Source: a virus. From it: a DNA stretch of 64,000 nt. Position numbers and translations under genes: made by a program. The DNA lies in IMG/VR virus record IMGVR_UViG_3300045999_002371, positions 1 to 64,000 of that record. One strand, 5' to 3'. Below, piece after piece: positions 1 through 14,903 of the stretch (its first letter is position 1; each line of letters starts with the position of its first letter). Under the pieces are notes generated by a model. It worked only from the letters and a program-made list of their open reading frames with translations, had not been told where the DNA came from and did not search any database.

Positions 1-30
1 GTGAATCATTCAAAGTGAAAAAAGCGAATC

Positions 31-604
31 GTTGAAACAGGTAACTGGCTTCAACAATAATTTAATAATAAATAAACATCGGTGAAACAACCTGCGAAAG
101 ATTTCCCTTAGTGGACAGTACTTGTGTGACGATCAATTTATTTATTTATTATTCATAGTGACTAAGAAACTGCGATTTATTTATTCGGTATTAGTTATCA
201 CTTAATAACTAGTTACTAAGGCAGAAAGTGTGCGGTCGGACTATACGATGCAATAACACCGAAATAAATAATCGATTCGATCATGCTTGCTACGGCGATG
301 CGAATGTAAAAAAAGTATTTACATTCAAGCGGTATTTCAAGGGCGCGGATTAACGATCACGAAACTGATTGTGAATAGCAGTAGGGCTTAGGGAATGAAG
401 TGTGGAGATCGTCATGTAACTAGTGACGGAATGTCTCTACTAGTGAGTGCAGGTGGTAACCAATCCAACCGATTGCACATTGAAACTAGTTACAACAACA
501 ACGATCAGCACTTCTGCTTATGTGTTAATAGTGATCGATCACCATAAATAGTCAGCGAACTATCTTGGTGATCGATCGCTATGAATACATAACTCGATGT
601 ATTC
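31..604 (+). ncRNA. Candidate large structured non-coding RNA / structured leader (may extend left of the window)
   Basis: No ORF before 643. Nested long stems (64-76/141-153, 173-189/258-274, 302-310/318-326, 518-544/566-592 with G-T wobbles), a GTAA (GNRA) loop at 41-44 and a c(TACG)g loop near 290. Confidence 0.45.
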
Positions 605-642
605 AATTCCACTAGTAACTACAAAAGGAAACGGAATAAAAA

Positions 643-816
643 ATGAAACAACAAACATTCATTGATGCAAAGGGCAACATCGTTGCTCGTGGTCGTATTA
701 CTGAGATCGCTATCGATCTACTACTAAATGACGGAACTCGCTTCTACTCAACTAAATCAGATAACTACACACTCGACTTCATCAAACAACTAGACATCGT
801 AAAGGTAACTAAGTAA
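643..816 (+). CDS. Small hypothetical protein, 57 aa (MKQQTFIDAKG...), not in ORF track
   Basis: Manual translation; AAAGGA-type RBS upstream; TAATG coupling to the next ORF. Confidence 0.7.
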   Translation: MKQQTFIDAKGNIVARGRITEIAIDLLLNDGTRFYSTKSDNYTLDFIKQLDIVKVTK

Positions 817-932
817 TGACGATCATTCTTGATTGCGCTATCTGCGCTAAACCTTCAACCGATTTATGGTTCGTAAAACTAAATGACAAACCTGCTCTTA
901 TTTGCCGACTATGTAATGGAGAAACTAAATGA
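816..932 (+). CDS. Tiny zinc-finger protein, 38 aa (CAIC...CRLC), not in ORF track
   Basis: Manual translation; two CxxC motifs; translationally coupled on both sides. Confidence 0.6.
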   Translation: MTIILDCAICAKPSTDLWFVKLNDKPALICRLCNGETK

Positions 933-1225
933 CAACAACTCGCACTTCTAACGCAAAGGCTGGCGATCTAATTGTTGATCGCGTTGCATTCACAGGTAAC
1001 AACCTCTACGGCGTTCTTACTCGTTACGATGAGGTTGTTCACTTAATCGGTCAATTACCGATCGAGTTTGAACAACAACTAAAACTAGATAAACCCGATT
1101 TCATTGTGTACTCGTATAACACTCCAATCGCTTGGCATTCTGACAAGGGCTGGTTTATTCCTGAGGTTAAGTACTCAGTTACAACATCAAAACATCAAAA
1201 CTATGTACGAAGGGCGGTTGCATAA
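929..1225 (+). CDS. Hypothetical phage protein (YSYNTPIAW...YSVTTSKHQ motif)
   Basis: GGAG RBS, ATGA overlap; the YSYxTxIA...SxTTxxH pattern is typical of a widespread small phage family. Confidence 0.75.
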   Translation: MTTTRTSNAKAGDLIVDRVAFTGNNLYGVLTRYDEVVHLIGQLPIEFEQQLKLDKPDFIVYSYNTPIAWHSDKGWFIPEVKYSVTTSKHQNYVRRAVA

Positions 1226-1226
1226 C

Positions 1227-1514
1227 ATGGGTCGACTACACGCAGAAGAGTTAGCAAGCGGTGAGTTTGTTCCTACTATTGAACAACAGATCGCAATTCA
1301 CTTCTCTAGTAATTGCTATCCACCTGTTCCACACATCATGATTGAAACTGCTATTGAAGCGATCAATCACTACAACGCTGGTTGGATTAACGAACTGATC
1401 TCGTTACCTGACGGAGTTACTTATCAGGGCAGAGATTCTGCTCGTGCTTACAAGATCATCGAGAACTTTCGTCTCGATGCATGGATAGATAGTGAGGTTA
1501 CTCAACTTGATTAG
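1227..1514 (+). CDS. Hypothetical protein (start reassigned to MGRLHAEE)
   Basis: ATG at 1227 directly follows the upstream stop; HFxxNCYPPVP motif. Confidence 0.7.
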   Translation: MGRLHAEELASGEFVPTIEQQIAIHFSSNCYPPVPHIMIETAIEAINHYNAGWINELISLPDGVTYQGRDSARAYKIIENFRLDAWIDSEVTQLD

Positions 1515-1605
1515 CATTCTTATTCTTGCGGTTATCGCTGGCGTTATTGGCGTATTACTTGAAAACCTATTTCACGAACTCTCACAAAAGAATCGGGGTA
1601 TCTAA
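1507..1605 (+). CDS. Tiny single-pass membrane protein, 32 aa, TTG start
   Basis: Manual translation ISILILAVIAGVIGVLL...; GAGG RBS; coupled to the ORF at 1605. Confidence 0.5.
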   Translation: MISILILAVIAGVIGVLLENLFHELSQKNRGI

Positions 1606-1871
1606 TGAGCCAATTCAATCTCGATGAACTCGGATTACTTCACACAATGGTTGAGTTAGCACTCGACAACGCACTCGAACAGGGTGCGCCACAACAGATC
1701 GTTGCGGTACTTCAATCTTCTCTATCAAAGATCGAATCTCGTATTGAAGAAGAGTGCAACATCTTCAATTCATTTCAAGAACTAACTACGCAACTCGATG
1801 ATCTGCACCTTGCATCAAAGATCATTGTGAAAAACCCTGATGCAGTTACAACCGACTACCAAACAAACTAA
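1605..1871 (+). CDS. Hypothetical protein
   Basis: ORF track; operon context. Confidence 0.7.
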   Translation: MSQFNLDELGLLHTMVELALDNALEQGAPQQIVAVLQSSLSKIESRIEEECNIFNSFQELTTQLDDLHLASKIIVKNPDAVTTDYQTN

Positions 1872-1895
1872 TCACCTAGAGAAAACGGAAACCAA

Positions 1896-2777
1896 ATGAC
1901 TACAGAAAACAAGACCCTGTTCGTTCCTACATTGGAAAAGACATCGCACTACATTCCACGCACCTTCGCTGGTGGCGTTACAGAAGATGCGATGTACGAC
2001 TTCGCACAAACTAACAACATGAACATCTTGATCGAAGGCGATGCTGGAACTGGTAAGACAACATCAGCACTTGCTTACGCATCAAAGCGACACATGAACT
2101 TCTTCGCTGTTCCATGTAACTCAGCGATCGACTTCACTCAGTTAATCGGTGGCTTGTTCCCTGATGCTGACGGCAAACTAAAGTGGGTTGACGGCGCGAT
2201 CACAAAGATCGTTCGTGAGGGTGGCTTGCTACTGATTAACGAACTCAACAACGCACCTAAGAACCTGTCTCAGTACCTCATGAGCCTTCTCGATGATCGC
2301 CGTTCAATTACATTGATGTCACATGACAACGAAGTAATCAACGCACACCCTGATCTTCTAGTCGTTGCAGATCAAAATCCAAACTATCGTGGCACTCAGT
2401 TACTTAATGAGGCGTGGAAAGATCGCTTCGAAGTTAAATTGCGATTCGACTACGACACCACCATTGAGAAGAAGATCATCACATCTTCATCTCTACTGGA
2501 ACTTGCAAACGGAATGCGATCAACATCTCGCAGAGAAGATCACGCATCAGATCGTGGAACTATCTTCGAGACACCTGTATCACCACGCATTCTAAAAACA
2601 TTCGAGAAGTTAGCAAAGGGCTTGTCATTCGAGTTTGCTTGCGATGTATTCGTAAACAACTTCACAGATGAAGAGCGACCTGCGGTCAAGATGCTTCTTG
2701 AAGGTACTTCATACAACATTCGAGAAGAACTCGGACTCGATGTTGATGCGATCACAACTGAACACGCAACGGCTTAA
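1896..2777 (+). CDS. MoxR/CbbQ/CobS-like AAA+ ATPase
   Basis: Walker A GDAGTGKT, WVDG motif, Walker B variant LLLINE, NPNYRG, DRF arginine-finger region; adjacent to a vWA gene. Confidence 0.9.
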   Translation: MTTENKTLFVPTLEKTSHYIPRTFAGGVTEDAMYDFAQTNNMNILIEGDAGTGKTTSALAYASKRHMNFFAVPCNSAIDFTQLIGGLFPDADGKLKWVDGAITKIVREGGLLLINELNNAPKNLSQYLMSLLDDRRSITLMSHDNEVINAHPDLLVVADQNPNYRGTQLLNEAWKDRFEVKLRFDYDTTIEKKIITSSSLLELANGMRSTSRREDHASDRGTIFETPVSPRILKTFEKLAKGLSFEFACDVFVNNFTDEERPAVKMLLEGTSYNIREELGLDVDAITTEHATA

Positions 2778-2779
2778 CA

Positions 2780-4780
2780 ATGTGTGCCTGTGGTAAATGT
2801 CCGTCATGTAAACGAAATGGAGTAACTGTGAACTATCACGATGCTATTGAAGAGTGGGAACTCGACATACTTGGTGAAACTCGTGAGTCACTACGATCAC
2901 AAGCGATCAAGGCAGAAGAGAAGAAGCAACGACTAGAGAGATTCACACAATTCTTTGGTCGTGTTAATTCTGCATTCACTTTTCGTAAAGTGACTGTGAC
3001 TGTTGAGAACTCGGCTATGGAAGCACCTGCTTGGTCAGGTGCATCAACTGTCACTTTCAACTCTCGTGTTATTGGTGATCTCAACGATGCTAAATCAATC
3101 GCTGGTATCAAGGGTCTTGATCTTCACGAGATCAGTCACATCTTGTACACATCTCGTGAGGGCTCAGAACTCTTCGACTATGTACGAGATAACAATTACT
3201 TCATGGCATACAACGCACTTGAAGATCAGAGAATCGAAACTCTCTTTACGGCTAAGTATCCGTCAACGATCGATTGGTTTACTGCCACGATCTTGATTCA
3301 CTTCGTTGATAACAAAGAGGCTTTCACTAACTCTTATCCGCTATTGCGTGGTCGTAGGTACTTGCCTGTTGATCTAAGAGCGCAATCTCGTAATGCCTAT
3401 CCTGAACAAGATCAGATCGATGAAATCTGTGCAGTAGTCGATGAATACCGCACTCTTCTATTCCCTGCTGATACTGAAAAAGGAAAGGAACTTATTGCGC
3501 GATTTAATGAGTTACTTCCAAAAGGTAATGGCTCAGGCAACGGCTCAGGTAGTGGCGATAGTGGGTCTGTACGCCCTGCTGGTGCTGGTCAAGAAGGTGA
3601 CTGTGTCATTCGTATCAATGACCCATTCGGTCACGGCAAACGACCACAAGAGGGCTTGGAATCGTCTGCTAACTCACGACCTGTTCCACCAAAGAAGCAG
3701 GAAAAAGATCGTGATCGCTCACAACAACTCGACAAAGAAGATGATGCACAACTGGCTGAACAATTAAAATCAAAACCTGTTATCGATGTTGACATCAACG
3801 ACATTGATTTCGATCTTGATTTCGATGATCTTGATTCAGATCAGGATTCAGATCAGGATTCTGATTCAGATCAATCTTCTAATTCTGCTGGTGATTCTGC
3901 TGGCGAGTTAATCGATACATTGATTAGTGATCTATTAGAAAACATTCTTGATTCTAATGAAACTGAAATCAATGACATCTTGCGACAGATTGGTGGTCTG
4001 CCTTCTCTTACTACCAACAATTCAAAAGAGCCTGAGTTAGATTCATTCCGCGACTTAGCCCCTGATGCAAATACCTTTCAAGCATCGTTGTCATTCGGTC
4101 GTGAGTTAGAGCGATTGAGATCGTCATTCGACCCTGCATGGGATAAATACGAATCACAAGGTCGCTTGTCTGCACATCGCTACTTGCGTGGTGATGATCT
4201 CGATACTGTATTCGATCAATGGAATGAAGGTCGTGAAGATGCGACTGAGATCGAATGCGTGATCTTGTTAGACAACTCAGGTTCAATGTCAGGACACAAA
4301 GCCTCTAGTGCGTACAAAGCCATGTACGCAATTAAGAAGGCACTTGATCGCGTTAATGCAAACACAACTGTTATCACTTTCAATGATCGTGCTAACACTT
4401 TGTATCGTGCAACTGATCGTGTCGGTAACACAATTCGTGATGCTGGTACTGGTGGTGGCACAACTGCTGACGGCGCAATTCAGTACGCAACTAAATTGCT
4501 TGCTGAAACTGAAAAGCCTGTACGAATCTTCTTCGCAATTACTGACGGAGAATGGTCGGGCGATCAGAGAGACAATCACGAAACAATCAAGCGCATGGCT
4601 CGTGCTGGTGTGCTTACTGCATTCGCGTACATTCCTGAAAGTACCGAACCTGTTGAACTAAACGCAGAGAAGTCTCACTATTGCGAGATCGCTTCTGTAA
4701 TTCGTAATCCATTCGATCTTGTTTACATGGCGAAATCAATCGTGAAGTACGCGATCTCTCGCCGTCTCGTAAACAACTAA
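2780..4780 (+). CDS. CobT-like protein: N-terminal HExxH metallopeptidase-like domain, acidic linker, C-terminal vWA domain
   Basis: HEISH, NALEDQRIE, MIDAS DNSGS...T...TDG. The true start may be GTG 2828. Confidence 0.88.
   Translation: MCACGKCPSCKRNGVTVNYHDAIEEWELDILGETRESLRSQAIKAEEKKQRLERFTQFFGRVNSAFTFRKVTVTVENSAMEAPAWSGASTVTFNSRVIGDLNDAKSIAGIKGLDLHEISHILYTSREGSELFDYVRDNNYFMAYNALEDQRIETLFTAKYPSTIDWFTATILIHFVDNKEAFTNSYPLLRGRRYLPVDLRAQSRNAYPEQDQIDEICAVVDEYRTLLFPADTEKGKELIARFNELLPKGNGSGNGSGSGDSGSVRPAGAGQEGDCVIRINDPFGHGKRPQEGLESSANSRPVPPKKQEKDRDRSQQLDKEDDAQLAEQLKSKPVIDVDINDIDFDLDFDDLDSDQDSDQDSDSDQSSNSAGDSAGELIDTLISDLLENILDSNETEINDILRQIGGLPSLTTNNSKEPELDSFRDLAPDANTFQASLSFGRELERLRSSFDPAWDKYESQGRLSAHRYLRGDDLDTVFDQWNEGREDATEIECVILLDNSGSMSGHKASSAYKAMYAIKKALDRVNANTTVITFNDRANTLYRATDRVGNTIRDAGTGGGTTADGAIQYATKLLAETEKPVRIFFAITDGEWSGDQRDNHETIKRMARAGVLTAFAYIPESTEPVELNAEKSHYCEIASVIRNPFDLVYMAKSIVKYAISRRLVNN
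3833..3874 (+). repeat. GATTCAGATCAG tandem repeat encoding a DSDQ acidic linker
   Basis: Direct reading of the sequence. Confidence 0.8.
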
Positions 4781-4801
4781 CTGTCACTCTCTAGGTGACT
4801 C

Positions 4802-4841
4802 GGTGTGGTGCGTTACTTGTGGAAGGCTGGCGCACCACACC
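4802..4841 (+). terminator. GC-rich hairpin after the vWA gene (terminator or processing stem)
   Basis: GGTGTGGTGCG...CGCACCACACC inverted repeat; weak U-tract. Confidence 0.55.
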
Positions 4842-4874
4842 ACTTAAACAATTACAACTAAGGAGAATAAATAA

Positions 4875-5492
4875 ATGAAATCAGCAGAACTCAAAGTAGG
4901 TATTAAGTACGGCGTTATTCCTTCATGGGATTATTCATCGCAAGATAAGAAAGACCCGACAAAGGTGCAACGCAGAGCCGTTGCTCAGGCAGAGTTAGTC
5001 TCACTAGAAAAATACGAATACAAGGTGTATCGATCAGATAATCCTGATGATGCACAATTTACTTCTGCACCAAAGGGAAGTAGATCAGTCGGTTACATCG
5101 TCAAATCTTCTGATTGGGCTGGTGCTACACAAGGTGACATCTACTGGATAGCAAGAGCGCAAGACATCGTTGCTGAGTATGCAACTCTTGAAACTCGTTG
5201 GTCTAAGGAAGAAGCCGAAGAGAAACTTCGTGAGGCTCAATGGAAGGCAGAACGCGAAGCCAAAGAACAACAAGAGAAGATCGAGAAAGATAATGCTCAG
5301 CGATCTATTGATGCGGTTAAAGAATCGCTTCGATCAATTATCGGTAGTCGTGCAGACAAACTCGACTTCGAGATTCGCAATCGCCGTCAAGAAAACGGCG
5401 AATACAAACTAAGCGGTGCTTGCACTATCGATGTACGCACTCTTCAATCACTAATCGAGAAGGTTCTCGAAGCGAGAGACATGGTGGCATAA
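4875..5492 (+). CDS. Hypothetical protein with C-terminal coiled coil
   Basis: AAGGAG RBS; ORF track. Confidence 0.8.
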   Translation: MKSAELKVGIKYGVIPSWDYSSQDKKDPTKVQRRAVAQAELVSLEKYEYKVYRSDNPDDAQFTSAPKGSRSVGYIVKSSDWAGATQGDIYWIARAQDIVAEYATLETRWSKEEAEEKLREAQWKAEREAKEQQEKIEKDNAQRSIDAVKESLRSIIGSRADKLDFEIRNRRQENGEYKLSGACTIDVRTLQSLIEKVLEARDMVA

Positions 5493-6197
5493 ATGAGTTA
5501 CTTCTTAGATCGATTCGTAGCGATTCAAGATAAGTACTACAAGAACTATCAAGGCAGTACGCATTACTCGACATGGTTGCGTAACAAACGATTCGACAAC
5601 ATGATCGAACTAAAACAATTACCGAATACCTATCAAGAGATTGAGTACAAGGGGCATTCGATCATTGTGCAGGGCATTCACTATCAATGGTGCGACATCG
5701 TTGATGTGTATGGAAATCCATTTACTAGCACACCTTATGTGTCGGACATAGGAGATCGTGGTGAAATGCAATTCAGCACGATCTTTCTTGCATGGGCTTG
5801 GCGCATTGACGGCGTTGGTGCAGATAAGCCGTTGAACTGGAATAGTGAACACGCAGTTATCTGTGGCAGTCATTCATCAGACAAGATCGAGAAAACGATC
5901 AAACTCGCAAAGAAGCGCATTGATCTTGAAGCAAAGATCGTTGCGGTTCAAGATCAACTGATCGCTATGGCTGATGAACGAATGGCTTACTCAACGGACA
6001 TGAGGGCATTCGTTCCATACAACGCCGTAGTTAACGATCAGGTGTTTATTCAGGGTCATGGTCGGTTGCGTAAGGGCTTAATCGTTGACACAACTGGATC
6101 ACGATTTATTGTCGCTTATGTAACTCCCTCTAATCATCATGATCTGAAATACAAGACACTTCCACTTAGTCGCTTATACATAAAGGAGAATGCGTGA
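5493..6197 (+). CDS. Hypothetical protein
   Basis: ORF track; coupled to neighbours. Confidence 0.75.
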   Translation: MSYFLDRFVAIQDKYYKNYQGSTHYSTWLRNKRFDNMIELKQLPNTYQEIEYKGHSIIVQGIHYQWCDIVDVYGNPFTSTPYVSDIGDRGEMQFSTIFLAWAWRIDGVGADKPLNWNSEHAVICGSHSSDKIEKTIKLAKKRIDLEAKIVAVQDQLIAMADERMAYSTDMRAFVPYNAVVNDQVFIQGHGRLRKGLIVDTTGSRFIVAYVTPSNHHDLKYKTLPLSRLYIKENA

Positions 6198-6670
6198 CAA
6201 CTAAGAGCCGAAAGTCTGCTAAAACTTTACAAAGAGAAGCAGACTTAGCACTTGGCGTACAACAATGCGCTAAGTGTGATCATGTGTTTCCACTAAGTAA
6301 CTTTCGATCTGCAAAAACTAAATCAGGAGTTACTTCGTACTGCAAACCTTGCGAAGAGCAATACAAGTTTGAATGGCACTTGAAGCGCAGATTAGAGATC
6401 AAGAACTGGATTTATCACCACTTGAAAACTAATCCTTGCGTTGATTGTGGCGAGAGCGATGTACTCGCACTCGACTTCGACCATGTAAAGGGCGCAAGGA
6501 AGCGTTACAACATCGCTCATGCCTTCATGATAAGTGGCATGACGATCAAGAGATTACAAACTGAGATCGCAAAGTGCGATGTCCGTTGCGGTAAGTGCCA
6601 CAGAATCCGTACACACATGGCTAGTAAGTCATGGAAATACCGAATGGCTATTGAGAAGGGAGATGCTTAA
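6194..6670 (+). CDS. HNH endonuclease with N-terminal zinc finger
   Basis: CAKC...CKPC; CVDCG...LDFDHV...EIAKCDVRCGKCHRIRT. Confidence 0.85.
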   Translation: MTTKSRKSAKTLQREADLALGVQQCAKCDHVFPLSNFRSAKTKSGVTSYCKPCEEQYKFEWHLKRRLEIKNWIYHHLKTNPCVDCGESDVLALDFDHVKGARKRYNIAHAFMISGMTIKRLQTEIAKCDVRCGKCHRIRTHMASKSWKYRMAIEKGDA

Positions 6671-6841
6671 TTGTTAACTCGTAGAGGTTGGATAGTGCTG
6701 GTAATTATTCCTGCATTGATCTTGGTATCACTATTTACTTATGCAACTCGTGATGTCTGCTATGTGGGCAAGGGTGGCAACTTCTTGGGCTATGGCTCAT
6801 GTACAAAGATGATCGATGAAGTGATTGGGGGAAACAAGTGA
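6671..6841 (+). CDS. Small membrane protein, 56 aa (LTRRGWIVLVII...), not in ORF track
   Basis: Manual translation, TTG start, GGGAG RBS, LTRRG followed by a transmembrane helix. Confidence 0.6.
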   Translation: MLTRRGWIVLVIIPALILVSLFTYATRDVCYVGKGGNFLGYGSCTKMIDEVIGGNK

Positions 6842-7056
6842 TCGCAACTGTAAAAGAGACGATCGAGATTCTGCAACGCAACTATGGGAATGCACTTGAT
6901 GAGACACTCGTAGTTACTTGGTGGGATTCGAAAGACTTCGAAGAGATGTCAGATGATGCAATTAACATCTGTGACGATGCACTCGATGTCTGTGTAGGTC
7001 ATGTCAACGATACTGTTTGGCAGAATGCAAAGATGCTGAATGAGGGAGAAGAATAA
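6838..7056 (+). CDS. Hypothetical protein
   Basis: ORF track; GTGA overlap. Confidence 0.65.
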   Translation: MIATVKETIEILQRNYGNALDETLVVTWWDSKDFEEMSDDAINICDDALDVCVGHVNDTVWQNAKMLNEGEE

Positions 7057-7221
7057 ATGGCTACATACACAATAACTGCCGAAGTAGATCAACAATGGTT
7101 CGACATACTCGGTCAGATAACAAGACACCAAGACGGATTCGTATGGTGTGATGTAACTACAACTGATGATCGTGTATTACGAACTGCATCAGACGGAACT
7201 CAATTCTTAGGAGACAACTAA
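7057..7221 (+). CDS. Small hypothetical protein, 54 aa (MATYTITAEV...)
   Basis: Manual translation; coupled on both sides. Confidence 0.6.
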   Translation: MATYTITAEVDQQWFDILGQITRHQDGFVWCDVTTTDDRVLRTASDGTQFLGDN

Positions 7222-7385
7222 TGGGATACGCACAGATCATTCGTAGGGTAGAAGCCCACGAACTAACTAATTGCGATGATTGCGGGAATGATGAACTTAC
7301 TTCATCAGGCAGATTCATAACTGATTCAAGCCACCAACCTGTTATTTGGTTCTGCTTTAACTGCATACAGAAAACAACAAGATAG
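7221..7385 (+). CDS. Small zinc-finger protein, 54 aa (CDDC...WFCFNC)
   Basis: Manual translation; AGGAG RBS. Confidence 0.65.
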   Translation: MGYAQIIRRVEAHELTNCDDCGNDELTSSGRFITDSSHQPVIWFCFNCIQKTTR

Positions 7386-7389
7386 ATTT

Positions 7390-7646
7390 ATCGAGCAGGG
7401 GTCAACATAGGGTTCAATCGGGTTAATTCATTTCCCGACTCCTTACCTATGAAGGGCGATCATGATCGCATTCGATAGTTACGGCGTAGTCGTACCTGCC
7501 CCTGCTTGATTCCACTATTGGTAGAGATCATCGACACCTAGCAGACTACGGCAGACTGAAAAGGTGTTATGAAAATCTTGCAAGATCGTTGATGCACAAA
7601 TAGGTCAACGCACGACATCGTTCTACTTCTCGATGATCTCTACCAA
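7390..7646 (+). ncRNA. Two tandem ~120-130 nt multi-branched structured elements (candidate ncRNAs)
   Basis: Outer stems 7390-7404/7497-7510 and a perfect 17-bp stem 7518-7534/7630-7646, each enclosing three hairpins. Confidence 0.5.
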
Positions 7647-7674
7647 CTATTCAATTACCTAGAGAGGGTTACAC

Positions 7675-7848
7675 ATGGAAACATCACCACTATTTACAGT
7701 AGAAGAAAAGAATCTGATACTCAATGCACGATTCGTACATGGTGAATCGTTGCAGAGCGTTGCTGATCGATTCGGTACAACTCGTAAACTAATTCGTCAA
7801 GTAGAAAGTAATTACATCAAAATAATGAAGGGGGAAATAAATGAGTGA
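7675..7848 (+). CDS. Stand-alone sigma70 region-4-like HTH peptide, 57 aa, not in ORF track
   Basis: EEKNLILNARFVHGESLQSVADRFGTTRKLIRQVES matches the r4.2 pattern LRF...TLxEVxxxFGVTRERIRQIE; GAGGG RBS. Confidence 0.7.
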   Translation: METSPLFTVEEKNLILNARFVHGESLQSVADRFGTTRKLIRQVESNYIKIMKGEINE

Positions 7849-8182
7849 ACTATCATCACACCAAACTGATCTCATCAAATCAATCACGATCGCTAACGAG
7901 TTTCTAAAGATCGTTCGTGGATTCAAGGTTGATTCTGATCGCAAAGACAGTCTGCCTCAGGAGATCAAGGAGTATCTAGCCAATGAACACTTGAACTCAA
8001 TCATGGAAGATCAAGAGATCGAACCTGAGATGTTGATTTGGGGATTCCTGCACATGATCGAGATTCTCTTGAAGTATGCAGAGTTAGACCCTGAGGACTT
8101 AACCAATGTCATGGACTCTTTCGTGAAGTATGTGATCGAAAACCCTGACCAATACACAGATCGGAGTAAGAATGAAGATTGA
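7841..8182 (+). CDS. Hypothetical acidic protein
   Basis: ORF track; GGGG RBS. Confidence 0.75.
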   Translation: MSELSSHQTDLIKSITIANEFLKIVRGFKVDSDRKDSLPQEIKEYLANEHLNSIMEDQEIEPEMLIWGFLHMIEILLKYAELDPEDLTNVMDSFVKYVIENPDQYTDRSKNED

Positions 8183-8447
8183 GATCATCAACGCACCATG
8201 TCAGTCAGCAGGTATTGACCCTGAACTATTCTTTCCTGACCCGACAGAGTACGAAAAGATTCAGCAAGCAAAATCTGTGTGCGGTCAATGTCCTGAGATC
8301 ACAAAGAATAAATGTCTCTCATTCGCACTAGAGAATGGTGTTCAGTACGGAATCTTCGGCGGTCTAACAGACAAAGAGCGAAACAATTTACGCCGTAGAG
8401 AAAACAGAAAGTACAAGCAGTATGTATCTGTGATTGGAGAGTACTAG
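8172..8447 (+). CDS. whiB: WhiB-family Fe-S transcription factor
   Basis: C...DPELFFP...AKSVCGQCP...C...AL...GIFGG...ER. Confidence 0.93.
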   Translation: MKIEIINAPCQSAGIDPELFFPDPTEYEKIQQAKSVCGQCPEITKNKCLSFALENGVQYGIFGGLTDKERNNLRRRENRKYKQYVSVIGEY

Positions 8448-8569
8448 TGGAGTACGCAAAGAATCAGGTAATCATCGAAGTCAATGGTGGCGTTGCAGAA
8501 GTAACTCGTTGCCCTAGTGACATCGAAGTAATCATCATCGATCACGATAACGAGATCAATGGTGAGTAA
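8447..8569 (+). CDS. Small hypothetical protein, 40 aa (VIIEVNGGVAEV...IIDHDN)
   Basis: Manual translation; GGAG RBS. Confidence 0.55.
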   Translation: MEYAKNQVIIEVNGGVAEVTRCPSDIEVIIIDHDNEINGE

Positions 8570-8747
8570 GTGGTGGAATGTTATCTTCGAAACAGATTCA
8601 ACCAATGTGGTTGATGCACTTCTAACTGTTCAAGTAGAAGCAGATACACCCGATGAAGCAATCATGTTAGGTAGAGAGCGATTCGAAACTCTCGTACTGC
8701 TACACAATAAATGGCAATTTATAGACATCTCAGAAACGAGTAACTAA
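8559..8747 (+). CDS. Small hypothetical protein (VxVEAxTxDEA motif)
   Basis: ORF track. Confidence 0.6.
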   Translation: MVSKWWNVIFETDSTNVVDALLTVQVEADTPDEAIMLGRERFETLVLLHNKWQFIDISETSN

Positions 8748-8908
8748 TGAAAACTATTGAGGACATCGAATACGAGATCGCGTTCATCGAACAAGAACTG
8801 CAATCTAATGAGTTTCCTTATCTCAGCAAAGATCATCTAACTAATTGGCTATCTGCACTTAACTGGGTTAAAACAAAGTGGGATTACGAAAGGACAACTA
8901 ATGCTTAA
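8747..8908 (+). CDS. Small hypothetical protein, 53 aa (MKTIEDIEYE...ALNWV)
   Basis: Manual translation; TAATG coupling. Confidence 0.6.
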   Translation: MKTIEDIEYEIAFIEQELQSNEFPYLSKDHLTNWLSALNWVKTKWDYERTTNA

Positions 8909-9083
8909 TCCAAACGACATAATGCTATTTACTCGTGAAGAGGCGGTTCAACTAAGTGGGCAAGTGCTTACCGATGAACAATGGAAACTAATTAGAAGAG
9001 AGATCGTTACTAACGACACCATGTGGGAAGTAATCGATGAATGTATTCAGAACTCGATCAATGCGGTGCTAGATAATGGTTAA
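8901..9083 (+). CDS. Hypothetical protein
   Basis: ORF track; AAGGA RBS. Confidence 0.65.
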   Translation: MLNPNDIMLFTREEAVQLSGQVLTDEQWKLIRREIVTNDTMWEVIDECIQNSINAVLDNG

Positions 9084-9561
9084 TACATTCTTACCTTTCC
9101 CTGACTTCGTAGAGACTGCCAAAGCACTCGATTACAAGCGATTAGGCAAGCAACGAGTAGAGGCGTGGCAGATACTTCAAGCGTTGCGTGGTGAGACTAA
9201 GGGCTGGACTAATCACCCTGCTACAAAGATGTGGCGTGGTCATGAGCGACTTCTATGTGAATACGGAATCGCAATCTGCAAAGAATGGATTGATCGTGGT
9301 TACAAAGACACCATGCTCGATCGATTCGTTGCGGTGCATTCGTTACTACCTGAATGCGAAGTACCTGTGTGGTTGGGTGATTCGTCATTCCATGAATCTC
9401 ATCAGAGCAACTTAAAACGCAAAGATGCAGATCACTACAACTTCAATGTTGAAAACGATCTTCCCTATTTATGGTTTGATCGAATGCTTGGCAACTTCAA
9501 AGTGTTTACGATTGGAAAAAAACCTAGTGAAACTAAACAGAAAACTGGTGCATCGAATTGA
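9076..9561 (+). CDS. Pyrimidine-dimer DNA glycosylase-like protein (MSMEG_6728/DenV-related)
   Basis: TFLPFPDF...LDYKRLGKQRVEAWQIL...GWTNHPATKMWRG...SHQSNL.RKD family signature. Confidence 0.88.
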   Translation: MVNTFLPFPDFVETAKALDYKRLGKQRVEAWQILQALRGETKGWTNHPATKMWRGHERLLCEYGIAICKEWIDRGYKDTMLDRFVAVHSLLPECEVPVWLGDSSFHESHQSNLKRKDADHYNFNVENDLPYLWFDRMLGNFKVFTIGKKPSETKQKTGASN

Positions 9562-9749
9562 AGGACTGGCTCACTACTACCGACATCGCACAACAAACAG
9601 GGCTAAAGATCGACACGATCTACACCTATCGCAAGCGAAACACCCTTCCCGAACCCGATCACATGATCGGCAATCGACCACTATGGAAGCAAGAAACAAT
9701 CGATGAGTGGAACTCTTATCGCACAACTCAAATAGAAACGGAGAAATAA
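9558..9749 (+). CDS. AlpA/excisionase-like HTH DNA-binding protein
   Basis: LTTTDIA...GLKIDTIYTY...LPEPD..IG.RPLW...TIDEW. Confidence 0.85.
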   Translation: MKDWLTTTDIAQQTGLKIDTIYTYRKRNTLPEPDHMIGNRPLWKQETIDEWNSYRTTQIETEK

Positions 9750-9753
9750 ATAA

Positions 9754-9981
9754 ATGGTTGCAAATGTAATCAGTAGCGAAACATCATCATCAACTCATGT
9801 GATCGAGTTTCCAATGAATGGAAACACTTTCACCGCCAAAGTATTTATTGGTGAGTGGGGCGTTGATGTTGATTGGTTTATTGGTGAGGACTTTATTGCG
9901 ATCGATGATCGCTGGAAGGTTCTGCCAACTGAACTCTATGATCTCGATGATTCGGATTGGGAAGAGATTCTTTATCCATGA
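9754..9981 (+). CDS. Hypothetical acidic protein
   Basis: GGAG RBS; ORF track. Confidence 0.65.
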   Translation: MVANVISSETSSSTHVIEFPMNGNTFTAKVFIGEWGVDVDWFIGEDFIAIDDRWKVLPTELYDLDDSDWEEILYP

Positions 9982-10133
9982 GTACCTACAAAGTAACTTT
10001 CGTATGGACACGATCGATCGAAGTCGAATGCGATTCCGAAGATCAAGCGAATCAACTCGGTGAACTATGGCTATCCGAAGCAGTACCGCAGATAGCCCAT
10101 GACACCGAGTGGGATAGCGAACTCGTTGAGTAA
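9978..10133 (+). CDS. Small hypothetical protein, 51 aa (MSTYKVTFVWTRSIEVECDSEDQA...)
   Basis: Manual translation; ATGA overlap; similar motif to the 8559 ORF. Confidence 0.6.
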   Translation: MSTYKVTFVWTRSIEVECDSEDQANQLGELWLSEAVPQIAHDTEWDSELVE

Positions 10134-10212
10134 CTCTCAGCCCTGATCTGGGGCTATTAGAAGTTACTTCAAGCCCACATAAGCAGATTCCCTAAGCCCA
10201 AAGTCACTATTC

Positions 10213-10248
10213 GCCCCTAGCCCCTGATCGGGCTAGGGGCTATTTTTT
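10213..10248 (+). terminator. Rho-independent terminator
   Basis: GCCCCTAGCCC-N6-GGGCTAGGGGC followed by TATTTTTT. Confidence 0.85.
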
Positions 10249-10257
10249 GCATTCGAA

Positions 10258-10289
10258 GTTACTGGTGAGTAACATTACTCATCAGTAAC
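10258..10289. promoter_or_regulatory. Tandem 16-bp palindromic operator-like sites (RTTACT-N4-AGTAAC x2) upstream of the recombinase
   Basis: GTTACTGGTGAGTAAC followed by ATTACTCATCAGTAAC; the pair is also a 15-bp inverted repeat with 1 mismatch. Confidence 0.6.
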
Positions 10290-10306
10290 ATGAAGGGGGG
10301 AAGATC

Positions 10307-11569
10307 ATGGCTTATGTCGTAAAGCGTGGAGATAGGTTTACAGGCTATTACCGAAAGGGCGGAAAACGCCTTTCAGCAGGTACATGGGGCTCGGAGATCG
10401 ATGCCATGTATCACGCCTCAAAAGCAGAGGCATCGGGCGTTAGCGAGCCTTCTAGGGCTGTATTTACCCTATCGACCTACATCGATTCATGGTTGCCGAC
10501 CGCCGATCTCATGCCGATCACTCGCAAGGGCTATCGGTCAGTCCTTGATCGCTATGTCCTGCCCACTCTCGGAGATCGCAAAGTAACTTCGATCGATAGA
10601 CGGGCGATTCAAGAGTTACTTCAAGGGCTCAGGGGTCAGGGGATAGGTTCAGCCACCCTGAATCAGATCAAGGCATCGCTAGGGTCTGCCCTCTCCCAGT
10701 TAGTCGATACAGGAGAATTAACTCAGAACCCTACTCATGGGATTCGTATTAAGGCGAAACAGTTAGACATCTCGAATGTCGTAGAGCCCGAAGAGTTTAA
10801 GGCGATCATTCAGCACCTACCGACCGAAGGGGCTCAGTTATTCGCCCGATTCTTAGTCGCATCAGGTTGCCGATTCGGGGAAGCCACCGAGATCAGGGTC
10901 AAAGACATCAACCTAAAGACAGGCGAAGTCTATGTCCAAAGGCGAGTCAGCGATCTAGGGTCAAGCCATACCAGCAGGTTTCTAGTCGTAGAAGCCACAA
11001 AGTCGGGTCATAAGCGAAGCCTTATGTTAAGCAAAGCCTTACTACAAGAGATTCAGGGCTATGTCATAGCAAAAGCCCTATCAAAAGATGACCTGTTGTT
11101 CCCAAGAACGATCATCTTAACAACAGGTAAACTAAAGACTTCTCGTGGAGAAATGTCTAAGCGACCATTCGCCCAAGACGGAAAACTGTTCCAGCATGGA
11201 ACTCTGTACGCCTATACACATGGGCGTTGCCGATGTGAGGCTTGCCGAGAGTCGGTGCGAAAGCACAGGCAAAAGGCAAAGCCATACCAAAAGCGACAGG
11301 GATTCATCGACCATACGAGCCACCTACCACGAGATGTATGGAGAACTACATGGAACAAGGCAATAGCCAAGTCAGGCATCGGGTGGAGTCCTAGAACCCA
11401 TGATCTCAGACACGCTAACGCTACCCAACTTCTAAAAAGTGGGGTAGATGTGCATGAGGTCAAGGAACGCTTAGGACATCAGTCGATAAAGACGACAGAG
11501 CGATACCTACATCGCCTTCGTCACAACCAGTCAAAGGCATCAGAAAGTGTCAATGACTTTTTGGAGTGA
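10307..11569 (+). CDS. int: Tyrosine recombinase/integrase with a zinc-finger-like insertion
   Basis: SAM-like N-domain; catalytic R (SGCRFGE), K (TKS), HxxR (HDLRH), H (LGH), Y (TTERY); insertion HGTLYAYTHGRCRCEAC. Confidence 0.92.
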   Translation: MAYVVKRGDRFTGYYRKGGKRLSAGTWGSEIDAMYHASKAEASGVSEPSRAVFTLSTYIDSWLPTADLMPITRKGYRSVLDRYVLPTLGDRKVTSIDRRAIQELLQGLRGQGIGSATLNQIKASLGSALSQLVDTGELTQNPTHGIRIKAKQLDISNVVEPEEFKAIIQHLPTEGAQLFARFLVASGCRFGEATEIRVKDINLKTGEVYVQRRVSDLGSSHTSRFLVVEATKSGHKRSLMLSKALLQEIQGYVIAKALSKDDLLFPRTIILTTGKLKTSRGEMSKRPFAQDGKLFQHGTLYAYTHGRCRCEACRESVRKHRQKAKPYQKRQGFIDHTSHLPRDVWRTTWNKAIAKSGIGWSPRTHDLRHANATQLLKSGVDVHEVKERLGHQSIKTTERYLHRLRHNQSKASESVNDFLE

Positions 11570-12147
11570 TGATGAAACTAACACGAAGAGGCAAGATCGT
11601 ATTCGGATCGCTATTTACGGCGATCTTCGTAGCAAGTGGGGTAGTGGTACTGCCACCAGCCTTCTCGCCTACGAAAGCCGAAGCACAGATCGAGCAGAAG
11701 CAATACCAAAAGCGATACCAAGAGCGAGCCCTAGCCAAGTACGAGAACGCACACAGACTAACTAAGACAGAGTTAGTCAACCTGCTTCACGCAGTTGGCT
11801 TCGAAGGGCAAGCCTTACGCTATGCGTGGGCTATCGCTATGAAGGAATCAAGAGGAAACCCTCTCTCCCACAACGGCAATCGAGAGACAGGGGATAACTC
11901 ATTCGGGTTATTCCAAGTCAACATGATTGATTCATTGGGACAAGATCGTAGGGACAAGTTCAGTTTGGAGTACAACGCCCAACTGTTGAATCCTGTGGTC
12001 AATGCTCAGATTGCTTATCACATGAGCAATCAAGGCAAGAACTGGAGAGCATGGAAAGGTGTCAACAACTCAGTAGTCAAAGAGTGGTTGAAGCAGTTCC
12101 CTGAGTCTCGTGCTAAAGCACTAGCAAAAGGAAAAGCAACAGAGTAA
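11566..12147 (+). CDS. Membrane-anchored/secreted lytic transglycosylase (lysozyme-like fold)
   Basis: LTRRG plus N-terminal TM helix; catalytic AMKES motif, GLFQVN, LLNPVVNAQIA, W..W. Confidence 0.85.
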   Translation: MMMKLTRRGKIVFGSLFTAIFVASGVVVLPPAFSPTKAEAQIEQKQYQKRYQERALAKYENAHRLTKTELVNLLHAVGFEGQALRYAWAIAMKESRGNPLSHNGNRETGDNSFGLFQVNMIDSLGQDRRDKFSLEYNAQLLNPVVNAQIAYHMSNQGKNWRAWKGVNNSVVKEWLKQFPESRAKALAKGKATE

Positions 12148-12158
12148 GCAATAGGAGA

Positions 12159-12187
12159 AGCCCCGTCAGAAATGGCGGGGCTATCTT
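12159..12187 (+). terminator. Hairpin/terminator with GAAA loop
   Basis: AGCCCCGTCA-GAAA-TGGCGGGGCT. Confidence 0.65.
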
Positions 12188-12238
12188 CGAAGTAACTCTA
12201 CCTGGCAGCCAGGTGAGTTAGTTAGTTAGGGGGCGAAC

Positions 12239-12655
12239 ATGGCAAGTGGCGGTATGCAGGACTGGCAGTCAATGAGCCATAGCAAAGCAAAGCCATACCA
12301 GAAGCCATACCAGAAGCAAGAGCAGTTCCCAAAGGAATACCACAAGGACAAGCAGTGGGTTCAAGACGAACTGCCCTTTACCGATAAGCCTTGGCGTGAG
12401 AGATCTCTTACTGATACTGAAGTAGAAGAACTCTTTTGGCGCGATTTAGTTCAGTTAGGCTGGAAGTTTCAAGCCTATGGAGAGAACCCAAGAAGCAGGA
12501 ACATTGTGTTGCCTTGCCCATACTGTGAGTTAGTTATTGATAGCCACACCATCATCACAGAGTCAAATGCCAAGAAGATGAAAGACAAGTATTACTGCGA
12601 GCAGATCCTTAGAAAGCACAAGGGTCTTGAATGCAAAGCCATACTAGAAGACTAA
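12239..12655 (+). CDS. Hypothetical protein (CPYC motif; KPYQ repeats arise from the DNA repeat)
   Basis: AGGGGG RBS; ORF track. Confidence 0.6.
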   Translation: MASGGMQDWQSMSHSKAKPYQKPYQKQEQFPKEYHKDKQWVQDELPFTDKPWRERSLTDTEVEELFWRDLVQLGWKFQAYGENPRSRNIVLPCPYCELVIDSHTIITESNAKKMKDKYYCEQILRKHKGLECKAILED

Positions 12656-12704
12656 GCAATAGCAAAAGCCCTACCAAAAGGCAGGGCTTCCGCTTTGTAT
12701 TGCT
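12655..12704. terminator. Hairpin between convergent transcription blocks (probable bidirectional terminator)
   Basis: AAGCCCT..CC-AAAA-GG..AGGGCTT, extended by AGCAATA/TATTGCT. Confidence 0.65.
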
Positions 12705-12707
12705 AGA

Positions 12708-14744
12708 TTACTTAGGTTGATTGTCTGTAATTAGTTTTACTTCGCAAGCATCAGTTGTGCAGTAAGCCTCACCAATAGCATCAGCAGCCATTCCTGCATA
12801 GACACCAGAGAAGTCAATAGGGAACAGTTGCATTACGCCCTGCTCTTCGTACTCCTTCTCAGTGATCTGTGTGTATGGCATCTGAGGATAGACATGGTTA
12901 CCACTAGGCAAGAATGAAACAGTCTTAAGTTGACCATCGTACATATGCAAAGCCGTACCAATAGCCGAGGCTTCCTTCTCTGGATCAAATGAGATCGTTA
13001 CAGAGACAGAGTTATCTGACCAATAGCGTTGAGCAGTAGCAGCAAGTGCCATCTTCTCGTAGATACTTACATCCTTCTCACTTCGCTTTGCATCAGACTT
13101 GATAGGGAAGAAGACAACGGAAGTCGTATCAGGAGACTCACTTGCTGGTTCTACTCTGTAGTTAGCAAGTTTGAATAGTGGAAGCATTGGATCGTTGTTT
13201 GAGAAACGAATTGCACGATTGAAGTACTGACCACCTACAGTCCAGTGAACTCCTGGAGATTCTCCAGCAAGGATCGAAACTGTTCCTGATGGCTTAACTG
13301 TTGTCATCTTGATTGACTCACGGATACCAAGCCACTCTGAGTAGTTGGTGTCGTATGACTTGATGACTTTGTAGCCTTCATCCATCCATTGACGCAGGAC
13401 TGGAAGTCCCTTGTTGTCTGCAAAGTTTGCAACACCAGAGACTGATGTACCGATGCGACGATTGCGTTGCATGATTGCGTTGGTCTCTTCCCAGTGAGTT
13501 GGAAGAAGTGTCACAGTCTTTGCGTAGAGATAGGCGAACTTCAATGTGCGCTTGAAATCTTCAAGGTCTGTGTGACGATTGAGATAGGTCTCTACCAATG
13601 TGCAGCACTCGTAGGACTCTAGTGATTGCTCAGCACATGGGTTATACCCTGCAATACGCCAGTCCTTGTTGTTGATTGGATCAGCAAGGCGACCATATTG
13701 CTTGGAGATGTCCATCCAAATAACTCCTGGCTCTCCATTGCGAGCAATACCTTCGATGATCCCATCAAGGTTATCGCCCACGTTGACAGCCACAGAGTTG
13801 TTAGACATCCAGCCATGAGTCATACGCTCTGGATACTTCTCGTAGTTCTTTAGGTTCAAGAACTCTTCATCATCGATGCGACCGATCAATAGTTCTGCAG
13901 AGCGACGGACGTTGCCAGATACAACGCATACACCGATCATGTTGCCGATGTCTGCGATGTCACGACGAGTCAACTTCTGACCAGCACGATCCTTGAATAG
14001 GTCATGGATGTACTGGTGCATCTTGATTAGCGGGTCTGCTCCTGCTGCTGTGCCACCGAAGGTGCGGATTGGTTCGCCTGCTGGACGGATCGCTTCGTAA
14101 TTAAATATTGGAGTCTTCGTATCTGGCTTGAGGTAGGCATTGATGAGGGTGGCTGTTGATTCAACCCAACCCTCTCTGGTGTCTGGGATGTCATAGGCGT
14201 ATTCTCCTTGTGGTGCATAGATGATGAACTCTTTGTCTGCTCCCTTGTCATCAAAGCCCACACCGACTCCGAGCATTGATGCCTCCATGAGGAATGCGAA
14301 AGGCTTTGCTGGATCTGTCTTGACCATCGATCCAGTTGAGACGAAGGCACAGTTCTGCAACGCTGCAGAGTTGCGATGCTCATTGACTAGTGGGGTTCCC
14401 ATAACCCATAGACCTCGTCCAGGTGGTGTCCACTTCAAGTTCCATAAGCGATCGAATGCTTCTTTGGCTGAGGCTGCTGCCTTTGCATCTGACCATGGCA
14501 AACGGTTTGTCTTTGCGTGATCCTTCTGTAATGAGTACATGCCGTTGATGACTCGTTCACATACATCAACCCATGTCTCCTTCGTACCATCTGCCTTGAG
14601 GCGAGAATAGGTACGCAAGAAAGTAATCTCTCCCACTGAGTTGCCCGCTGCATCTTGATAACCGAACGGCGCTTTCTTTGAGCGATACGGTCCAATGAAA
14701 TCCTCAGTCAGTTTGAAAGATAATGTTGTCATAACCCCTACCAT
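12708..14744 (-). CDS. nrdJ: Class II (adenosylcobalamin-dependent) ribonucleotide reductase
   Basis: RTYSR, PPGRGLW, ALQNCAF, GNVRRSA, NPCAEQ, TVKPSGT, C-terminal CTTDAC. Confidence 0.95.
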   Translation of the reverse strand: MVGVMTTLSFKLTEDFIGPYRSKKAPFGYQDAAGNSVGEITFLRTYSRLKADGTKETWVDVCERVINGMYSLQKDHAKTNRLPWSDAKAAASAKEAFDRLWNLKWTPPGRGLWVMGTPLVNEHRNSAALQNCAFVSTGSMVKTDPAKPFAFLMEASMLGVGVGFDDKGADKEFIIYAPQGEYAYDIPDTREGWVESTATLINAYLKPDTKTPIFNYEAIRPAGEPIRTFGGTAAGADPLIKMHQYIHDLFKDRAGQKLTRRDIADIGNMIGVCVVSGNVRRSAELLIGRIDDEEFLNLKNYEKYPERMTHGWMSNNSVAVNVGDNLDGIIEGIARNGEPGVIWMDISKQYGRLADPINNKDWRIAGYNPCAEQSLESYECCTLVETYLNRHTDLEDFKRTLKFAYLYAKTVTLLPTHWEETNAIMQRNRRIGTSVSGVANFADNKGLPVLRQWMDEGYKVIKSYDTNYSEWLGIRESIKMTTVKPSGTVSILAGESPGVHWTVGGQYFNRAIRFSNNDPMLPLFKLANYRVEPASESPDTTSVVFFPIKSDAKRSEKDVSIYEKMALAATAQRYWSDNSVSVTISFDPEKEASAIGTALHMYDGQLKTVSFLPSGNHVYPQMPYTQITEKEYEEQGVMQLFPIDFSGVYAGMAADAIGEAYCTTDACEVKLITDNQPK

Positions 14745-14903
14745 TTCTATAAATGTCTAAATACCCCTCTGTGGGTTGCTTAGTATTGCGCTTGGAAACC
14801 TATCATGCATCTGCTAACTTTGCGAAGTACTATTGCCAAAAGAAAATGGTCAACTACGGGTGAGATATGTTTCACACCCTGTTAACTGCTGTTATCAGAT
14901 AAG

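Follow-up and report, generated by a model that had tools for sequence, protein, structure and literature searches.

The first 12,704 nucleotides of a phage genome recovered from lake water are almost free of a large set of short, restriction-site-like words, and the same words return at normal density in the remaining 63 kb. The DNA analysed here (the window, 64,000 nucleotides at full length) consists of bases 1–64000 of the IMG/VR record IMGVR_UViG_3300045999_002371 (76,311 bp; classed as linear and 76% complete; termed G000), and the purged block, window 1–12704, is the sole plus-strand gene block of the phage. We consider it rather likely that this block is leading-end early DNA, exposed and functioning before the protection encoded by the block itself acts; the purge is the footprint expected of first-entering, unprotected DNA. 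A preliminary description of the same DNA had proposed a staged-entry and host-takeover module analogous to that of phage T5, with small open reading frames (ORFs) as candidate anti-restriction genes.

We scanned all 4–6-mers together with degenerate recognition patterns, using the density in the rest of the genome as the expectation. Within window 1–12704, ACGT (about 34–48 expected), ATAT and GGCC do not occur at all and TATA occurs only 5 times, so that the restriction-site purging noted in the preliminary description is confirmed and proves stronger than first claimed. The first copies past the block are found at 12943 (ATAT), 13780 (ACGT) and 15933 (GGCC), and 169 ACGT and about 180 GCNGC sites lie outside it. 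When the coding sequence was shuffled among synonymous codons, which keeps the protein sequence and the block's own codon usage, 37.8 ACGT, 40.6 ATAT, 18.3 GGCC and 42 AGCT sites were expected, compared with 0 observed for each of the four words. Degenerate patterns and longer words are also lost, again in the block only:

GCNGC: 1 in the block, 36 expected
CCWGG: 2 in the block, 21 expected
GGNCC: 0 in the block, 12 expected
CCATC: 1 in the block, 33 expected
GGATG: 0 in the block, 20 expected
CAGTG: 1 in the block, 23 expected
GACGC: 0 in the block, 10 expected
GGATC: 3 in the block, 23 expected
CTRYAG: 1 in the block, 20 expected
RGCGCY: 0 in the block, 11 expected
GWGCWC: 0 in the block, 15 expected
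RAATTY: 0 in the block, 9 expected
TTTAAA: 0 in the block, 5 expected
CTGCAG: 0 in the block, 7 expected
GCAATG: 0 in the block, 6 expected

Further words beyond those listed behave likewise, and more than 30 word families are avoided in the block alone. Most of the purged words are palindromes or known type IIS-type sites, and where a word is asymmetric, both of its orientations are lost. Loss inside the block and retention outside also hold for words without G or C (ATAT, TTTAAA, AATATT) and for RAATTY; therefore, guanine modification alone is not what shields the rest of the genome.

To place the block in a family context, we used its von Willebrand A (vWA) protein as a query against IMG/VR, which returned 18 related contigs with 51–94% identity, and compared five whole genomes, namely G000 and four fetched relatives (G001, G002, G003 and G005). 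G001 is a close relative of 87 kb (92–96% protein identity to G000), and G002, G003 and G005 are complete at 94.7–97.4 kb, with end overlaps of 123–127 bp. In all five genomes the purge reaches down to the protein level. Ala-Ala, Gly-Pro and Pro-Gly are absent from the approximately 3000 residues of the block proteins of the window, compared with 16, 6 and 6 expected from composition, because these dipeptides force GCNGC, GGNCC and CCNGG; the rest of the genome contains 145 Ala-Ala, 31 Gly-Pro and 71 Pro-Gly, and the ban on the three dipeptides holds in 5/5 genomes.

The avoidance is two-tiered. AGCT and CCGG are missing from the whole 76 kb, from block and rest alike, and together with CTCGAG and GCTAGC they are absent from all five genomes (76–97 kb), whereas the more than 30 other words are avoided in the block only. 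The preliminary description had in addition pointed to an enrichment of GATC and TCGA, of which the former holds, the TCGA excess being mostly codon usage (z score 1.5). The block contains 160 GATC sites, whereas the rest of the genome predicts 56, and the count lies at z +9.6 relative to synonymous shuffles. We rejected the idea that this excess is a side effect of the purge, as coding DNA contains 140 GATC sites compared with 59 under resampling that avoids the forbidden words, an imperfect sampler which left about 181 forbidden hits per sample. GANTC, CGCG, ATCGAT and CGATCG are also elevated in the block, and despite the GATC excess, GGATC, TGATCA and AGATCT are avoided there. The GATC enrichment amounts to 2.3–2.8-fold in the blocks of the window, G001 and G002; in G003 and G005, GATC is absent genome-wide. 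As to ATAT and TATA, which are purged from the block in 4/5 genomes, we know of no characterised type II enzyme that cuts ATAT. Their loss could reflect an uncharacterised nuclease or an avoidance of −10-like promoter words; promoter-like sites number 13 in window 1–16000, compared with 27.9 in shuffles.

The purged block is conserved in position, gene order and size among the relatives. All of them share the order AAA+ ATPase, vWA protein, 205-amino-acid (aa) protein, 234-aa protein, HNH endonuclease, WhiB, integrase and SLT protein, with further genes on either side of WhiB, followed on the opposite strand by ribonucleotide reductase and then a 501-aa phrog_887 protein. The word-free stretch covers 13.7 kb in G005 (23,851–37,572), 12.5 kb in G003 and 16.5 kb in G001, so that block size ranges from 12.5 to 16.5 kb or 13–17% of the genome; outside the stretch, ACGT and ATAT together occur on average every ~180 bp. 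In G003, G005 and G001, both edges of the purge lie no more than 50–300 bp from the two strand switches. At all 18/18 loci, the density of ten core motifs is at least 10 per kb in the flanks and 0–1 per kb in the block, with four loci being leakier. The preliminary description had asked for an equally sized purged block ending in a repeat array among relatives; we found purged blocks of 12.5–16.5 kb, with the array in all five genomes compared.

The word sets differ between lineages inside these edges. The G003 block additionally lacks GTAC (0 vs 38) and nearly lacks TGCA (1 vs 76), the blocks of G003 and G005 have also lost GCATC, GTCTC and GTYRAC, and the G002 block keeps ACGT, ATAT, GGCC and RAATTY and has lost the core set. 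As lineage-specific words are purged inside the same edges, block-confined selection is therefore still acting. Inherited composition, recent transfer, a variably present island or chimeric assembly cannot be the source of the conserved purge pattern.

The position of the block relative to the genome ends is suggested by cultured phages. Window position 1 is a contig end and not a genome end, since contigs of three lake-water runs (X1, X2 and X4) extend left of position 4 and the homologous block of G001 reaches about 1.8 kb further left. Combining G000 and G001 gives a circle of roughly 99 kb, with 22.5 kb between the two ends of G000 absent from this record; the portal and large terminase genes are located in this missing part. 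The terminase is 52–53% identical to those of the Streptomyces myoviruses BRock (Borockvirus), LuckySocke, Alone3 and GiJojo; BRock and LuckySocke are the nearest isolates by terminase. Between G005 and LuckySocke there are 40 collinear protein matches, which begin with the gene preceding the terminase and end at LuckySocke gene 189, the homologue of window 14904–16409 and the last collinear gene before the terminal block.

Past this last collinear gene, both BRock and LuckySocke carry 10–12 kb of small genes on the opposite strand, a block which abuts the physical end, is transcribed inward and is preceded by a non-coding leader of ~0.9 kb. In BRock, gp1–gp27 occupy 869–12,128 at the left end, and the remainder of the genome is on the minus strand, which is the layout of the window. 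The exact terminal repeats measure 344 bp in LuckySocke and 221 bp in BRock. The two isolates share the terminase lineage, the gene order and the terminal opposite-strand block layout with the lake phages, which in these respects are Borockvirus-like; however, their blocks have no detectable homology to the lake-phage block, lack an integrase, a CobS/CobT-like pair and WhiB, and in neither of the two phages did we find an array like the 15-mer array described below. An ArdA-like gene was noticed just outside the LuckySocke terminal block. Synteny would place the physical end of the lake phages at the left, promoter-proximal edge of the block, and the phage is probably one of roughly 99 kb with fixed ends and a short terminal repeat.

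Two other routes to the genome ends were tried and rejected. A long terminal repeat, whose presence the preliminary description had left to be determined, would double the depth of the block if collapsed in the assembly. Depths per contig (Logan contigs, not read depths) were 122–155 in the block and 103–138 in the rest for X1, and 7.7–10.9 and 8.6–9.8 for X2; block depth is 1.1–1.2 times that of the rest and not twofold, and contigs from two runs span the 12.7-kb edge at the same depth, which excludes this interpretation. Contig breaks were likewise not usable as physical ends. At least 13 related contigs break in the 2-kb leader, but the breaks are scattered over 99–1411 nt after the boundary hairpin, which suggests strain microdiversity in a hypervariable leader.

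Since the avoidance is confined to one segment and a cut anywhere in the genome should be lethal, this segment must be exposed differently. We propose that the block (window 1–12.7 kb plus the ~1.8 kb off the contig) would reach the cytoplasm first, and that the host polymerase would transcribe it while the other 85% of the genome is not yet exposed or vulnerable. In this unprotected interval, any host restriction cut in the block would be lethal, so that sites would be removed even at a cost to the protein sequence. Products of the block would then counter restriction in a site-independent manner, leaving the rest of the genome free to keep its sites. That the protection of the rest would be site-independent follows from the words without G or C, which obey the same rule; AGCT and CCGG, and in some lineages GATC, are avoided genome-wide, and the protection evidently does not cover enzymes cutting these words. 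The sharp distal edge, located at the end of the plus-strand unit and beside a repeat array, suggests that delivery stops or is handed over at a discrete point and does not follow a gradient. The features of the block and of the first genes beyond it are as follows:

1–352, plus strand: right part of an ORF-poor leader, which begins ~1.8 kb left of the contig end according to the G000–G001 alignment
353–630, plus strand: candidate structured RNA 1, in the 5′ leader before the first small gene (covariation, 14 sequences)
643–1871, plus strand: four small early ORFs of 57, 98, 94 and 88 aa, including two strongly acidic ones, with homologues in G001 and G002
1896–2777, plus strand: CobS/MoxR-like AAA+ ATPase (Pfam AAA_5, E 1.7e-19; phrog_249, E 1.7e-34), in all relatives
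2780–4780, plus strand: CobT-like vWA protein with a long Asp-rich linker (Pfam VWA_2, VWA and CobT_C)
4875–6197, plus strand: conserved early proteins of 205 and 234 aa, in all 18 relatives
6194–6670, plus strand: HNH endonuclease with an N-terminal zinc ribbon (phrog_2255, E 2.5e-29; DUF6510)
7386–7674, plus strand: candidate structured RNA 2, intergenic, before the sigma-70 region-4-like and WhiB genes (fold and covariation)
7675–8447, plus strand: sigma-70 region-4-like 57-aa protein, acidic 113-aa protein and WhiB transcription factor (WhiB, E 8.6e-18)
9076–9749, plus strand: DenV-like pyrimidine-dimer glycosylase (Pyr_excise, E 2.7e-22) and Xis-like helix-turn-helix protein (HTH_17 and AlpA, sub-threshold)
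10213–10240, plus strand: terminator-like hairpin, an 11-pair stem with 9 G-C pairs followed by a T run
10307–11569, plus strand: tyrosine integrase (Phage_integrase, E 3.9e-25)
10963–12964, plus strand only: array of 16 copies of a 15-mer with the consensus AAGYCATACCAAAAG, conserved at the same place in G001, G002, G003 and G005
11566–12147, plus strand: secreted SLT_3 lysozyme-like protein (SLT_3, E 8.6e-19; N-terminal hydrophobic signal in the translation)
12656–12707, no strand: convergent junction forming the distal edge of the purge; plus-strand genes end at 12655 and the minus-strand ribonucleotide reductase gene ends at 12708
12708–16409, minus strand: ribonucleotide reductase and the 501-aa phrog_887 protein (queuine tRNA-ribosyltransferase/DpdA-like), the first genes past the block

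The coincidence of the convergent junction with the purge edge is repeated in G003 and G005. The gene content agrees with the early-type, single-strand mini-genes, transcription factors and wall hydrolase of the preliminary description. All credible block genes are on the plus strand and many are small, and 11/26 ORFs are strongly acidic (isoelectric point 4.1–4.6), which would fit DNA mimics, although acidity is not specific to these. The four small ORFs at 643–1871 gave no Pfam family above threshold. WhiB is present, while the Sigma70_r4 match of the 57-aa protein (23 bits) stays below the cut-off of 24.1, like the matches of the Xis-like protein. The zinc ribbon of the HNH protein matches the Lar-like phrog_5558 weakly, and the SLT_3 lysozyme-like protein with its signal peptide represents the wall hydrolase. 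Genes kept in all relatives comprise those for the AAA+, vWA, 205-aa, 234-aa, HNH, WhiB, integrase and SLT proteins. The integrase is found in 5/5 genomes (61–96% identity), but an alignment-based search for a related prophage or host in 185,579 species genomes gave no relative, and a temperate life is therefore unproven. The 501-aa protein (14904–16409, minus strand; phrog_887, E 2e-58) is conserved in the relatives and annotated as hypothetical in LuckySocke; it has no Pfam match, so that the DpdA-like assignment comes from PHROG only.

Both structured RNAs anticipated in the preliminary description show compensatory pairing above controls. For RNA 1, the alignment of 14 sequences contains 44 pairs, 21 of them with compensatory changes, compared with 3–8 such pairs in slid controls; 95.4% of the cells are paired compared with 82.8% in shuffles, none of which (0/500) was as high, and invariant G-U pairs suggest a plus-strand RNA. 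RNA 2 has a minimum free energy of −93.8 kcal/mol (z −5.26), and its six sequences only give 82 pairs with 22 compensatory ones, compared with 12.7 in shuffles (0/500) and 0–3 in slid controls. A search of window 1–16000 and the G005 leader with Rfam 15 gave nothing credible, including for both candidates. It is speculation that they act in processive antitermination or as a stabilising leader of the long early operon. Within the block, the terminator at 10213–10240 separates a 10-kb early operon from an integrase–SLT unit.

All five genomes retain the terminal repeat array, which has 16 copies in the window. The remainder of the 76 kb has one copy of the 15-mer on the plus strand and four on the minus strand. 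The copies of the array are mostly intragenic and occur in all three frames of the integrase gene, the SLT gene and a 138-aa ORF, in addition to intergenic DNA. The array may serve as a stop or hand-over signal, may consist of integrase arm-type sites or Rho-loading sites, or may be an RNA–protein site. Neither a DnaA box cluster nor an SOS box cluster was found at either block edge. At the start of the leader, outside G000, there is a conserved non-coding boundary element of 270 nt, which occurs once in each of 28 IMG/VR contigs and consists of invariant sequence blocks and an invariant hairpin; the purge begins within ~100 bp of it. With 0 compensatory pairs in 23 sequences, we rejected an RNA and read the element as DNA sites, and a likeness to the LuckySocke terminal repeat was rejected as well, the two sharing an 8-mer only. 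In the otherwise ORF-poor leader of G001 (oriented 49192–50055, ~0.4–1.2 kb left of window position 1), two minus-strand ORFs of 149 and 125 aa with Cys-rich N-terminal zinc-ribbon motifs resemble inserted genes of the homing-endonuclease type.

With respect to the phage as a whole, the source runs containing the sequence are lake-water metagenomes and the GC content is 40–50%. Gene content (sheath, baseplate wedge and tape-measure genes) makes the tail contractile, and the replication set is complete, comprising DNA polymerase, DnaB, primase, helicase, a UvsX-like recombinase and ribonucleotide reductase; a Cas4-like exonuclease is encoded as well. An actinobacterial host is suggested by the WhiB gene and by the closest relatives in culture. 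None of 50,697 phage records matched the block in a megablast search. Long imperfect tandem repeats of 9/18/36 nt occur at window 58860–59440 within a collagen-like tail-fibre gene. Outside the window, at ~68–73 kb of G000, GTAC climbs to 26–34 per 2 kb in a 1056-aa structural ORF; the same peak in G001, G003 and G005 appears to be a repeated coding motif.

How such a block could be delivered may be considered in the light of known systems. In T5 and BF23, restriction acts only via sites in the first-step-transfer DNA (PMC10644984), and in Murciavirus (Autographiviridae), only motifs in the first-injected region confer restriction sensitivity, a rule that according to its authors cannot hold for headful packagers (PMC12455610). 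In conjugative plasmids, the leading region also enters first, depleted of restriction targets and enriched in anti-defence genes (cited in PMC12455610), but this transfer is single-stranded and conjugative and the region has no homology to the block. Like the segment of T5, BF23 and Tequintavirus, the block is a discrete early host-takeover segment (8–17%) with repeats at its distal border, and the T5 principle that targets matter only in first-entering DNA is matched as a sequence footprint only. A strict two-step delivery as in T5, with the block in a long terminal repeat, the 15-mer array as the stop and entry resumed via block proteins, would agree with this principle, with the size of the block and with a sharp distal edge adjoining a one-strand array. 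Nevertheless, we regard it as unlikely. The T5 segment lies in a 10-kb terminal repeat, whereas the block has no doubled depth, contigs span its edge and the repeats of the isolates measure 221–344 bp; the T5 border is a non-coding region with DnaA boxes (10.1101/866236), whereas here a one-strand 15-mer runs mostly through coding DNA and DnaA-box clusters are missing. In addition, T5 is a siphovirus, this phage is contractile-tailed, and no A1/A2 homologue was seen among the proteins scanned. Of the T5 analogy in the preliminary description, the principle of block-only site avoidance stands, and the specifics (long repeat, DnaA boxes, non-coding stop region) do not, with no A1/A2-like protein among the block proteins scanned; its staged-entry interpretation is likewise supported as to a discrete restriction-avoiding unit and not as to the phage belonging to the T5 system. 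Delivery coupled to transcription, as in T7, is no less plausible than a T5-type brake, because all block genes are directed inward and the purge ends together with the plus-strand unit. Here, host RNA polymerase starting from leader promoters would reel in the plus-strand unit and halt at terminators, the rest entering otherwise. The layout is comparable to that of T7 and the Autographiviridae, whose leading end has early genes directed inward and is the expected place of anti-defence genes, the structured leader RNA and the promoter-proximal DNA element at the head of the block are both conserved, and Murciavirus offers a precedent (PMC12455610). Autographiviridae, however, have ~40 kb with genes on one strand and their own RNA polymerase to complete entry, whereas in the lake phages the rest of the genome is antisense to the entry direction and neither an Ocr-like protein nor, among the annotated large proteins and short of a dedicated search, a phage RNA polymerase was recognised. 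Fixed ends with a short repeat, as in T7, would hold for the lake phages only by collinearity with BRock and LuckySocke, the assemblies of the relatives being circular, and the strong terminator at 10213–10240 sits 2.5 kb short of the purge edge. Taken together, this route is possible but rather doubtful. A two-step delivery built from parts unrelated to T5, with the 270-nt element at the leading end, the leader RNA, the 15-mer array as a stop or hand-over signal and a general, site-independent anti-restriction function encoded by the block, can be put forward only tentatively and is doubtful in this full form; for the anti-restriction function, the CobS/CobT-like pair of AAA+ and vWA proteins, those of 205 and 234 aa and the acidic small proteins are candidates.

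A special order of entry would not be needed if the entire genome entered at once and only the early block had to survive the first minutes, cuts elsewhere being tolerated or repaired after block products such as nuclease inhibitors or recombination functions are made. This would explain why no entry machinery was recognised, and a UvsX-like recombinase and a Cas4-like exonuclease are indeed encoded. However, hundreds of cuts (169 ACGT and about 180 GCNGC sites outside the block) are unlikely to be repairable, a gradient would be expected in place of a step that is sharp to 50–300 bp, and in T5 and Murciavirus the position of sites matters through entry order (PMC10644984, PMC12455610), so that we judge this scenario distinctly improbable. 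Even less probable is that the virion DNA is base-modified everywhere but in the block, leaving the block alone to rely on site avoidance. The phrog_887 gene adjoining the block invites this idea, but its product lacks a Pfam match to the tRNA-ribosyltransferase (TGT) family, N6/N4 (PF01555) and C5 (PF00145) methyltransferases and QueC (PF06508) are absent from the five genomes, and words without G are likewise purged inside the block and kept outside. We also know of no region-limited DNA modification. A foreign module, mobile island or chimeric assembly carrying the composition of another lineage is scarcely credible. The integrase, the Xis-like gene and a GC content and word usage that differ from the rest could be taken in its favour; yet the block occupies the same place in all 18 relatives and three complete genomes, AGCT and CCGG are absent from block and rest, the lineage-specific word sets keep the same edges, and contigs of two runs bridge the edge at the same depth. 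The mobile island named in the preliminary description as a refuting case, variably present among close relatives, is therefore not what we see, with the block in all 18 relatives and the integrase in 5/5 genomes.

Several points weigh against reading the block as first-exposed leading-end DNA. The ends of this phage are predicted through collinearity with BRock and LuckySocke and not from its own family; the 123–127 bp overlaps of G002, G003 and G005 are k-mer assembly circles and no evidence on physical ends. Moreover, the LuckySocke terminal block (OR725497, 103.5–114.2 kb) shows no palindrome purge and non-palindromic depletions only, with GAAG/CTTC at 37 vs 160 and GCAG (GCAG/CTGC) at 43 vs 121, a 3–4-fold decrease, and CGCG 4-fold up; this may be the same phenomenon with non-palindromic targets. 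No A1/A2-, ArdA- or Ocr-like protein or other known anti-restriction family was detected among the block proteins scanned with Pfam and PHROG, a negative that leaves several small ORFs outside the PHROG scan and includes no direct comparison with T5 proteins. AlphaFold2 models of the 205-aa and 234-aa proteins (predicted local distance difference test scores, pLDDT, of 86 and 87.5) gave no informative match with Foldseek against the PDB, at most a weak resemblance to Tudor/SH3 barrels. As the genes past the block are on the opposite strand, transcription cannot draw in the rest of the genome as in T7, and to our knowledge staged entry has not been described in contractile-tailed phages. Finally, the GATC excess and the ATAT loss are left unexplained by this reading.

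T5, T7 and the leading regions of plasmids have already established the principle that first-entering DNA avoids restriction sites. The present case stands out by the depth of the purge, which extends to the protein level, by its two tiers, by its occurrence in a contractile-tailed lineage, by the conserved cis elements at both edges and by the two new structured RNAs. Clear examples of defence pressure at the DNA level that shapes protein sequence are rare, and the block is one of them. If our reading of it as first-exposed early DNA is true, word statistics alone would reveal which DNA a phage exposes first, without the need for culture, and ordered or staged delivery would exist in a contractile-tailed group where none has been described. 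The two-tier purge further predicts a broad anti-restriction function encoded by the block that fails against AluI-like and HpaII-like enzymes, and the purged words should list the restriction repertoire of uncultured freshwater hosts.

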